IMG/VR virus record: IMGVR_UViG_2534682325_000026 | From: a virus | Taxonomy: Duplodnaviria > Heunggongvirae > Uroviricota > Caudoviricetes | DNA length: 15,065 nucleotides | Strand: one strand, 5' to 3' | Shown here: positions 1 through 3,000 of the stretch, piece by piece | Layout of the letters: each line of letters opens with the position of its first letter | Position numbering within the stretch: the stretch's first letter is position 1 | Made by a program: the position numbers

Positions 1-3000
1 AAGAAATAGGGCTTCCACCTGGGAAGCCCTTTCTTTTTATAGTTCGGCTGTATGTAGGGTACAGCACGATGAATCTGTTAGAGGCGCAATAGTGACAGAT
101 TTGATTATCAATTCCTATTTTGTTCTAAGGATAAAACCTTAGGTTGTGATCATCCGCACAATCCCTTAGTAACGCCAGCGGTCATAACGCTGATATTTCG
201 GCACTTTTGGTGCTTTAATCGCCTTAATAACCCACACCACCGCAATCGCCAGGAGTAACCACGGCAGCAACTTAATCATCAATGCCAGCATACCGCCGAG
301 GAACATAATGGCCGTCGCCACAACCAGCGCGGCGATAATGCCCAGCAACGAAACGCCGGTGACCATCAACATGACAAAAAAGCCAATCACAAAAAGTAGT
401 TCCAGCATGATGCTCTCCCAAATATGAAATCTCTTGCAGGCATTACAAGAATCATGCCAAAAATAATCTATTGATTTAACAGCAAAACGCCCCGCGACGG
501 TGCGCAGGGCGTGGTGAATTTGACTACTTTTTGGTGAAAAGTTAACGCTTATCCGCCACCAGTTTGAGCGCGTGTTCCAGCACGTTAATGTCTGCACCCG
601 CTTTATGGGCATTTTCACTTAAATAACGCCGCCACTGCCGCGCGCCAGGAATACCCTGGAACAAGCCCAACATATGCCGGGTAATATGGCCAAGATACGT
701 CCCCTGGCTGAGTTCACGCTCAATGTACGGATACATGGCGCGCACTACCGCCACCGGATCGGCATCGGTATCCGAGGAACCAAAGATCTCTCGGTCTACC
801 GCCGCCAGAATACCCGGATTCTGATACGCTTCGCGCCCGACCATCACGCCATCCATATGTTGCAAATGCGCTTTAGCCTCTTCCAGCGACTTGATACCAC
901 CGTTAATCGACATCGTCAGATGCGGAAAGTCACGCTTCAGTTGATACACACGCGGATAATCGAGCGGCGGGATTTCACGGTTTTCTTTCGGGCTTAACCC
1001 CGAAAGCCAGGCTTTACGTGCGTGGATGATGAACATCTCACACTCGCCTTTGCCGGAAACGGTGTTGATGAAATCGCAGAGAAATTCATAGCTGTCCTGG
1101 TCATCGATGCCAATACGCGTTTTCACCGTCACCGGAATCGACACCACATCGCGCATCGCTTTCACGCAGTCGGCAACCAGCTGCGCATTACCCATCAGAC
1201 ACGCACCAAACATGCCGTTCTGCACCCGGTCAGACGGGCAGCCGACATTCAGGTTGATCTCATCATATCCACGCGCTTCTGCCAGCTTCGCACACTGCGC
1301 CAGCGCCGCCGGATCGCTACCGCCGAGTTGCAACGCTACCGGATGTTCTTCTTCACTGTACGCCAGGTAATCACCTTTACCGTGAATAATCGCCCCTGTA
1401 GTCACCATTTCGGTATACAGCAACGTATTGCGGGAAAGCAGACGCAAGAAATAGCGGCAATGTCTGTCCGTCCAGTCGAGCATTGGTGCAACGCTAAACC
1501 GAGAATTCCAGTAAACACCAGTTTTTTCAGGCATCACGCTGGTTTGATTAATTTTTTGTGCTTCATGATTATCGTGCATTTTTGAACATTTCAGGCTATT
1601 TTTCTCGCGTTAGGTTCCCGCACAGGTTCCCACGTTTTATGGGAACCCGAAATAACGAGGTCGTGTAATGGCGTACTATAACATAGAGAAACGACTAAAA
1701 TCCGATGGCACACCACGCTATCGCTGTAATGTGATTATCAAAGAAAAAGGTGTTATCACTTACAGGGAAAGCAAAACATTCCCTAAACATGCTCATGCCA
1801 AAACATGGGGCACACAGAAAGTGATGGAATTAGATCTATATGGCATTCCATCATCAAATGCAGTTGACGGACTTACAGTCCGTGACTTACTACACAAATA
1901 TTTAAATGACCCAAATGCCGGAGGTAAAGCAGGCCGTACTAAAAGATATGTGCTGGAACTGCTTATGGATAGTGACATATCCGCGATCAAACTATCTGAA
2001 CTGACAGAAAATGACGTAATTGAACATTGCAGGCTAAGAAACAACGCTGGTGCAGGCCCAGCAACAGTCAGCCACGATGTTAGTTATCTTGGCAGTGTTC
2101 TGGATGCGGCAAAACCTGTATACGGAATCAATTACACATCAAACCCGGCGAAAAGCGCTCGTCCATATCTACTTAAACTCGGTTTGATTGGTAAATCAAA
2201 CCGTCGTAATCGTAGACCAGCATCTGATGAACTTGACATGCTCATTGAAGGCCTTCAACAACGATCTACTCATAAATGCTCAAAAATTCCGTTCGTTGAT
2301 ATCCTCAAATTTTCTGTGTGGTCCTGTATGCGAATCGGAGAAGTATGCCGGTTACGATGGGAAGATCTCGACCAAGAACAAAAATCTATACTAGTAAGAG
2401 ATAGGAAAGATCCACGTAAAAAGGAAGGTAACCATATGAAAGTTGCCTTGCTTGGGGAAGCCTGGGATATCGTCCAGCGACAACCAAAAAAATCAGAATT
2501 CATTTTTCCATATAACAGCACTTCTGTTACCGCAGGATTTCAGAGGGTAAGAAGCAAATTAGGTATTAAAGATCTGCGATATCATGATTTGCGTAGAGAA
2601 GGGGCAAGTCGCTTATTTGAGGCTGGTTTTAGTATTGAGGAAGTCGCTCAAGTTACAGGGCATCGTTCATTAAACGTGCTATGGCAGGTATATACCGAAC
2701 TGTATCCGAAATCTTTACATAATCGTTTTGAAGAACTCCAAAAGAGCAGAAACAAGACCTCTTGACACTGTTTATTTATACAGATAAAAATAACACTGTA
2801 TACAAACACAGTATAGAGGGATTTTTATGCGTATTGAAATCTGCATAGCCAAAGAGAAAATGACTAAAATGCCAAACGGTGCTGTGGATGCGTTAAAGGA
2901 AGAATTAACTCGGCGCATCAGTAAGCGTTATGACGATGTAGAAGTGATCGTAAAAGCCACCAGCAATGATGGGCTTTCTGTTACACGCACTGCAGATAAG

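Follow-up and report, generated by a model that had tools for sequence, protein, structure and literature searches.

In phage lambda, the N-terminal domain of Int binds the arm sites P1, P2 and P'1 to P'3 of attP. The DusA-associated integrase elements, to which the locus studied here belongs, have an int gene that diverges from dusA beside it, semi-conserved direct repeats in the dusA 5' end, an element-supplied dusA 5' end, and the PrtN-family protein RdfN (PMC4482086, PMC8409611). The same two papers define a core att of about 21 bp, the excisionase and the promoter effect, and the word "arm" occurs in neither of them. Here, we analysed a stretch of 15,065 nucleotides (the window; IMG/VR record IMGVR_UViG_2534682325_000026), which is a decayed lambdoid prophage inserted in the 5' end of dusA in Escherichia coli O157:H7. 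We report that heptamers of the type GGTTCCC beside its two att junctions are, with a probability of roughly 0.8 as judged from sequence comparison, arm-type sites of the tyrosine integrase encoded by the prophage.

Positions 1440-1700 of the window match E. coli O157:H7 at 100% (261 bases compared), and the integrase shares 98-100% identity with those of phage mEp460 and several other E. coli phages; the start of its N-terminus (MAYYNIEKR...) is kept across all homologues. As in the DusA-associated elements, int adjoins and diverges from dusA, the insertion lies in the dusA 5' end, repeats are found at both ends, and a replacement 5' end is supplied by the element, a principle demonstrated in Farrugia 2015 (PMC4482086) and Durand 2021 (PMC8409611). 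The element is flanked by an imperfect direct repeat of 117 bp (1466-1582 and 13634-13750, 83% identical), and the crossover must fall within the 27-bp stretch of exact identity inside this repeat. The following features were located at the two junctions:

542-1579, minus strand: dusA open reading frame, its start 88 bp from the divergent int
1476-1502: core (crossover) region of the int-proximal junction, 27-bp exact copy TCGAGCATTGGTGCAACGCTAAACCGA, within dusA codons
1503-1579, minus strand: replacement dusA 5' end supplied by the prophage, right of the left core copy
1613-1619, plus strand: P'1, candidate arm-type site GGTTCCC, outer copy of the int-proximal direct pair
1625-1633, plus strand: P'2, candidate arm-type site GGTTCCC(AC), heptamer at 1625-1631, running on as GGTTCCCAC to 1633, 12 bp start-to-start from P'1
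1641-1647, minus strand: P'3, inverted copy, GGGAACC on the plus strand
1668-2765, plus strand: int, dusA-specific tyrosine integrase of 365 amino acids (Pfam PF00589), ATG at 1668
13583-13589, plus strand: P1, candidate arm-type site GGTTCCC followed by AATA, outer edge of the conserved attP
13594-13602, plus strand: P2, candidate arm-type site GGCTCCC(AC), GGCTCCCAC, 11 bp start-to-start from P1 and 43 bp from the core
13644-13670: core (crossover) region of the int-distal junction, 27-bp exact copy TCGAGCATTGGTGCAACGCTAAACCGA
13671-13750: orphaned native dusA 5' end, right of the right core copy

In an attP of about 235 bp, the int-distal arm carries two of the five sites and the int-proximal arm the other three. 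The motif (GGTTCCC or GGCTCCC) occurs on both arms and is absent from the 27-bp core, and the same relation between motif and core was found in 12 elements compared below. An earlier note on this DNA had listed the heptamers, including the inverted GGGAACC at 1641-1647, and its positions proved exact to the base. Its placement of the pairs 30-60 bp inside each att core holds when measured from the ends of the 117-bp repeat and fails for the 27-bp core, from which the right-hand pair ends 43 bp away and the left-hand pair begins about 110 bp away, the latter because the replacement dusA 5' end (1503-1579) sits between.

Seven-base motifs recur randomly, and two further GGTTCCC copies (4743 and 5785) lie in coding DNA, within NleG and tail-fibre genes, and look fortuitous, so that a chance cluster had to be weighed. 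The window nevertheless contains six GGTTCCC copies where 1.43 are expected, a count of six or more being reached in 2 of 200 shuffles, and four of the six fall in two stretches of at most about 35 bp beside the att repeats. The longer form GGYTCCCAC is present twice, with 0.15 expected. Given this enrichment and clustering, and a layout that is conserved family-wide, we assign chance a negligible probability, and the comparative data below rule it out.

Sequence variation among close relatives and the extent of homology also favour the arm-site reading. An IMG/VR scan with integrase alignment gave near-identical E. coli loci only and was used for a comparison of population variation: all 21 site positions are invariant across 72 E. 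coli-type loci, whereas 14 of 74 neighbouring positions vary. The homology of phage PhiR40_1 to the window starts at P1, and the DNA beyond P1 is unrelated cargo.

Conservation of the layout and covariation with the integrase N-terminus

To follow the sites among relatives, 80 genome loci whose integrases are 52-100% identical were fetched and, together with earlier loci, 84 were scored for an int-proximal pair, defined as a repeat with a match of at least 7 of 8, a spacing of 11-12 bp and a position about 30-70 bp from the int start codon. Such a pair is carried by 67 of the 84 loci, compared with 1% of shuffles and 3-4 of 75-84 control windows, and an inverted third copy equivalent to P'3 is present in many relatives, although not in all. 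Both arms can be read together in phage genomes because attP is contiguous there, and this was possible for 12 elements with integrase identities of 33-100%:

mEp460-like, integrase 98%: sites on both arms as in the window
Yersinia YeP1, 69%: distal AGCACCCC twice; int-proximal AGCACCCC twice and an inverted copy, at the same positions
EKP1, 67%: distal GTACACC twice; int-proximal GTACACC twice and an inverted copy
Morganella IME1369_02, 68%: distal GGACACC, then GCACCCC; int-proximal GGACACC twice and an inverted copy
PM2-like Vibrio prophage, 55%: distal AGTACG twice; int-proximal AGTACG twice
P2-like C5a and ACA1, 54-55%: distal GTCCCCC, GTGACCC and similar; int-proximal GTCACCC twice
P2-like SMHB1, 56%: distal GTCTCCC and GTACCCC; int-proximal GTCTCCC twice
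P2-like M16-3, 54%: distal GTGCCCC-type copies; int-proximal GTGCCCC and AGGCCCC
Podoviruses BcepIL02 and E220, 35-36%: distal TTGCTAC-type twice; int-proximal TTGCTAC-type repeats and inverted GTAGCAA copies
Klebsiella N133, 33%: distal TGCACA twice; int-proximal TGCACAC twice and a third direct copy

The layout, a direct pair of 7-8 bp repeats on the distal arm and a pair just upstream of int that is often joined by an inverted third copy, is thus kept in nearly every relative examined, in lambdoid, P2-like, PM2-like and podovirus genomes and down to 33% integrase identity, in viruses that have little in common beyond int and the PrtN-family gene. The two best sites of the P arm are 11-12 bp apart, start-to-start, in nine of the 12 elements, and between the second of them and the core lie 41-43 bp in six of the nine closer relatives and 60-63 bp in the three distant ones. 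The motif itself differs by lineage (GGTTCCC, GCACCCC, GTACACC, GGACACC, GTCACCC, TTGCTAC, TGCACAC), and the P' motif of each element matches its own P arm, the diagonal score over the 12 elements being 154, whereas 73,503 random derangements reach at most 137. The earlier note had proposed looking for the heptamer in other dusA elements; position and copy number are indeed retained, while the literal GGTTCCC is lost in distant relatives. Since position and copy number are kept and the sequence shifts in step on both arms, these look like sites for an element-specific protein.

In the record named "Elizabethkingia phage EKP1" (locus L003, OM284015.1), the attP core, the integrase and the arm sites essentially match those of a Klebsiella chromosome locus (L016), and its stated Flavobacteriia host therefore looks doubtful.

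The identity of the binding protein was approached through covariation among 77 non-redundant integrases. Motif similarity is correlated with identity in integrase residues 1-60 when the rest of the protein is controlled for (partial rank correlation 0.40, permutation p <= 0.0005), whereas the reverse partial correlation, of the motif with the rest of the integrase, is -0.03. A scan in 20-residue windows places the signal within residues 1-60 only, with a drop beyond residue 60, and the highest mutual information with the motif is found at residues 30 and 23, on the predicted strands beta3 and beta2, respectively. Natural swaps follow the same line. From residue 39 onwards, the integrase of IME1369_02 (sites GGACACC) is 98-100% identical to that of Morganella morganii H1r (sites GCACCCC), but over residues 1-38 the two share 63% identity, and in the DNA alignment near identity extends up to P'1, followed by a divergent block of about 185 bp comprising P'1-P'3 and codons 1-38, after which identity resumes. 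A Rosenbergiella pair (L014 and L015, alignment A6) has the same swap pattern. Conversely, integrases that are about 50% identical overall and about 70% identical in residues 1-38 share GCACCCC. Seen as an event in its own right, a cassette of about 185 bp holding the P' sites and int codons 1-38 has been exchanged between otherwise near-identical integrase loci in both cases (L004 versus L018, alignment A5; L014 versus L015, alignment A6).

AlphaFold models suggest a separate domain for this part of the protein, three beta-strands and a helix ahead of the core-binding domain:

1668-1847, plus strand: predicted arm-binding N-terminal domain, int residues 1-60 (AlphaFold models)

Conserved position and number, agreement between the arms and covariation with residues 1-60 together point to the N-terminal domain as the binder of the heptamers and lend support to the arm-type interpretation already offered in the earlier note.

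Several observations weigh against this assignment. In the structure searches, the isolated N-terminal domain model had no significant Foldseek match (best E = 0.07) and did not specifically retrieve the N-terminal domains of lambda and Tn916. A Pfam search with the N-terminal 111 residues (E <= 10) yielded no match for the domain, the only match there being a weak Int_N located in the core-binding region, and an N-terminal domain profile run against all sequences of the PDB found nothing meaningful. As structure, Pfam and PDB profile searches gave nothing specific, the fold assignment rests on topology and modest AP2 matches. The second site of the P arm is often off by one or two bases, and one locus (L032) pairs an N-terminal domain of the GTACACC type with GGACACC sites. 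A PrtN-family protein is likewise present in the elements checked, in five by Pfam and in the others by annotation or tblastn. Finally, co-inheritance within recombination tracts could yield part of the covariation without any function, because the P' sites lie 20-240 bp from the DNA encoding the N-terminal domain.

Possible roles of excisionase, bending and transcription at the attP arms

Three further features bear on which proteins may act at attP:

12237-12545, plus strand: PrtN-family protein, homologue of the excisionase RdfN (PF11112, E = 4e-23)
1568-1607: four 10-bp ATT units, ATTATCGTGC, ATTTTTGAAC, ATTTCAGGCT and ATTTTTCTCG, starting at 1568, 1578, 1588 and 1598, between the core and P'1 and spanning the dusA start codon
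13611-13623: IHF-like site TAACTATTTGTTT (YAANNNNTTGATW, one mismatch), between P2 and the core, read by eye

The PF11112 match provides the RdfN counterpart expected of a DusA-associated element, and PrtN-family genes co-occur with the dusA integrase family in phages. As RdfN is a proven excisionase of dusA-specific elements (Durand 2021, PMC8409611), as short direct repeats are typical excisionase targets, and as a PrtN-family gene was found in the elements checked, the heptamers might instead be sites for this protein, which would coat both arms to direct excision. We consider this improbable. Known excisionases act on one arm beside the core, and the heptamers are outermost on both arms; switches of the motif coincide with swaps of integrase residues 1-38; and the arms still match in P2-like phages whose PrtN/Cox-like gene is far from attP, an annotated excisionase/Cox-like gene (PF11112-like in ACA1) being situated kilobases away in ACA1, SMHB1 and M16-3. 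PhiR40_1, in which RdfN is 85% identical and the arm sites are unchanged, differs at few positions and hence is uninformative on covariation with the excisionase.

Moreover, an array resembling the target format of PrtN, four ATTG-type repeats of 10-11 nt, lies elsewhere in attP, at 1568-1607. The PrtN P-box consists of four repeats of 10-11 nt with the consensus ATTGnn(n)GTnn(n) (PMC4905994). A 10-bp periodic array is present between the core and P'1 in essentially all of 77 loci (lag-10 self-identity 0.49 versus about 0.28 at other lags), and ATT chains with a step of 10-11 bp occur in 37 of the 77, against none at the off-period steps of 7-8 or 13-14 bp. The units of the window lack the G of ATTG, the fourth base being A or T, and have GT in one unit only; marine relatives fit the P-box closely, with AATTGCCTTG units, and enterobacterial ones more loosely. 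Like the P-boxes of Pseudomonas aeruginosa pyocin promoters, the array comprises four tandem ATT(G) units of 10-11 nt in an element that encodes a PrtN-family protein; unlike them, its role would be in the directionality of recombination and not in the activation of pyocin genes. We infer that 1568-1607 is a better candidate site for the PrtN-family excisionase than the heptamers are, and the array may possibly be intrinsically bent DNA, additionally or instead.

On the other arm, one-mismatch IHF-like 13-mers equivalent to that at 13611-13623 occur at the same place in three enterobacterial relatives, YeP1, EKP1 and IME1369_02 (L002, L003 and L004), and none was seen in the marine relatives, whose sequences were read by eye. 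We regard the IHF-like site with low confidence.

P'1-P'3 also lie within the 88-bp spacer between the divergent dusA and int genes, and for this reason bound integrase could modulate the transcription of either gene. Regulation of int or dusA in this way is possible, and autoregulation of int through the left sites, as the earlier note had suggested, is plausible from their position; such regulation would be compatible with arm sites and does not compete with them. A scan of 1400-1800 for simple sigma-70 consensus promoters and terminators found neither, and no promoter was assigned in the spacer for that reason.

A different proposal gives the int-proximal repeats a purely transcriptional role, as an operator or activator site of the divergent int and dusA promoters in the manner of CII-type direct repeats around a -35 element, with the distal pair incidental. 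P'1-P'3 do fill the spacer from the dusA start (1579) to the int start (1668), TTTTAT lies 17-18 bp downstream of P'1, and in related elements this spacer supplies a new promoter for dusA and a constitutive one for int (Durand 2021, PMC8409611). This proposal is distinctly improbable, since the other arm has the same pair at a conserved distance from the core and no gene starts there in YeP1, EKP1 and IME1369_02, the sigma-70 scan was empty, and the regulatory circuits of the elements are unrelated.

The last alternative concerns P'2 and P'3, in which GGTTCCC (1625) and GGGAACC (1641) form a perfect inverted repeat that could act, in single-stranded DNA or in the leader RNA of int, as a hairpin with a 7-bp stem and a 9-nt loop. 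In one relative (L006), both halves have changed together, to GGTCCCC and GGGGACC, as a hairpin would require. The pairing is broken in L007, L008 and L053, however, the inverted copy is absent altogether from many relatives, no T-run follows the stem, and P'1 and the distal pair are left unexplained, so that a functional hairpin is very improbable and was rejected on the broken pairing. Because P'3 does not pair with P'2 in L007 and L008, it is better described as a degenerate site (GGYYCCC) than as a conserved hairpin.

In other relatives, good LexA (SOS) boxes such as CTGTATATGCATACAG and TACTGTTTGCATAACCAGTA are located in the int-dusA spacer: in L005 and L080, about 70-85 bp upstream of int, and in L078, L085 and L082. 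These relatives have no inverted third site, and the window has no LexA box. The position of the boxes in the spacer suggests SOS control of int or dusA in the elements that carry them.

Working model and comparison with known systems

Taking the heptamers as arm sites, we infer the following model of integrase binding and bridging, of the part played by bending and of any regulation. The five heptamers would be the arm sites of attP in an mEp460-like prophage whose integration target is the dusA 5' end, and the integrase would be heterobivalent, its core-binding and catalytic domains (residues about 71-365) acting on the 27-bp core common with dusA, and its residues 1-60 binding the GGYYCCC arm sites. 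DNA bending between the arms and the core, on the P side perhaps from the IHF-like site and on the P' side perhaps from the 10-bp periodic ATT array, would allow integrase protomers to bridge arm and core and to assemble an integrative or excisive complex. The ATT array probably also binds the PrtN-family excisionase, and integrase bound at P'1-P'3 could modulate the transcription of int, dusA or both.

A more far-reaching version of this model is offered as doubtful speculation. In it, the N-terminal domain would be a readily re-targetable beta-sheet module that owes its specificity largely to a few residues such as 23 and 30 and is exchanged, along with the P' sites, as a cassette of about 185 bp, which would prevent cross-reaction between co-resident dusA elements; integrase bound at the divergent promoter region would couple expression of dusA, a tRNA-modification gene of the host, to the state of recombination; and the PrtN-family excisionase would act through the P-box-like array that overlaps the dusA start.

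The proposed arrangement resembles lambda attP in its five short sites, unrelated to the core and distributed two and three across the arms, and in having room, and some sequence evidence, for sites of bending proteins between the arms and the core. The integrase resembles lambda Int in the predicted N-terminal domain of three strands and a helix that precedes the core-binding and catalytic domains, although this domain has no detectable sequence similarity to that of lambda. Departures from lambda are the GGYYCCC motif, the coding 5' end of dusA as target, a P' arm that holds both a promoter and a replacement gene start, the inverted orientation of one P' site, and a PrtN-family excisionase with its probable sites on the P' arm and not on the P arm. 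Relative to the DusA-associated elements as published (PMC4482086, PMC8409611), the arm architecture is an addition.

A search of the full-text literature, including PMC10612066 and PMC12715192 and with subscription-only papers outside its scope, found no arm sites for dusA integrases. The arm layout therefore appears to be new for the family of dusA elements, and the mechanism itself is textbook; being the lambda paradigm again, the result will be useful to specialists rather than startling. Its use follows from the frequency with which dusA serves as an integration site for prophages and genomic islands, among them Shiga-toxin phages such as phiSTEC1575-Stx2k and 1720a-02, O157 prophage remnants that, like the present one, carry effectors, islands of Acinetobacter and Pseudomonas, and resistance islands of Vibrio related to SGI1. 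With its outer limits clear, and with five predicted integrase sites and a probable array for the excisionase, this attP of about 235 bp would be a minimal substrate for recombination in vitro, and a defined attP would allow the ends of islands to be predicted exactly. Differences in arm specificity would explain how several dusA elements can coexist or compete, and the natural specificity variants could be used for engineering orthogonal integrases.

Remaining contents of the prophage

Both att junctions look intact, as do int and the PrtN-family gene, so that excision of the prophage may still be possible. The remains found 3' of int comprise DinI, three NleG effectors, a side tail fibre, Lom and J, the last represented by its C-terminus only, and the further contents are an IS3-family insertion sequence, gene fragments, the PrtN-family gene and an open reading frame of 178 amino acids of unknown function. 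The last of these occupies the slot outside P1 in the window (12963-13499), is also found in mEp460, and has no Pfam match; in PhiR40_1 (L173), which has the same integrase, this slot holds a YafM/YafO toxin-antitoxin pair (222-1212).

The three NleG-family type III effector genes stand in tandem on the minus strand at 3236-5239, beside int and DinI, as cargo of the dusA prophage. Signs of decay are seen at 7661-8787 and 11889-12227, where J is reduced to its C-terminal receptor-binding part, and where DUF2303 and an exonuclease survive as fragments that match profile positions 148-269 of 269 and 79-177 of 177, respectively. The IS3-family element (9005-10314) lies in the early region of the prophage, contains an HTH_Tnp_1 open reading frame (9059-9385) and an rve open reading frame (9382-10272), and ends in 25-bp inverted repeats that are 88% complementary. 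Within the side tail fibre gene, direct repeats spaced by 99 bp (5890-6152) correspond to a collagen-like Gly-X-Y region with a Pfam Collagen match.

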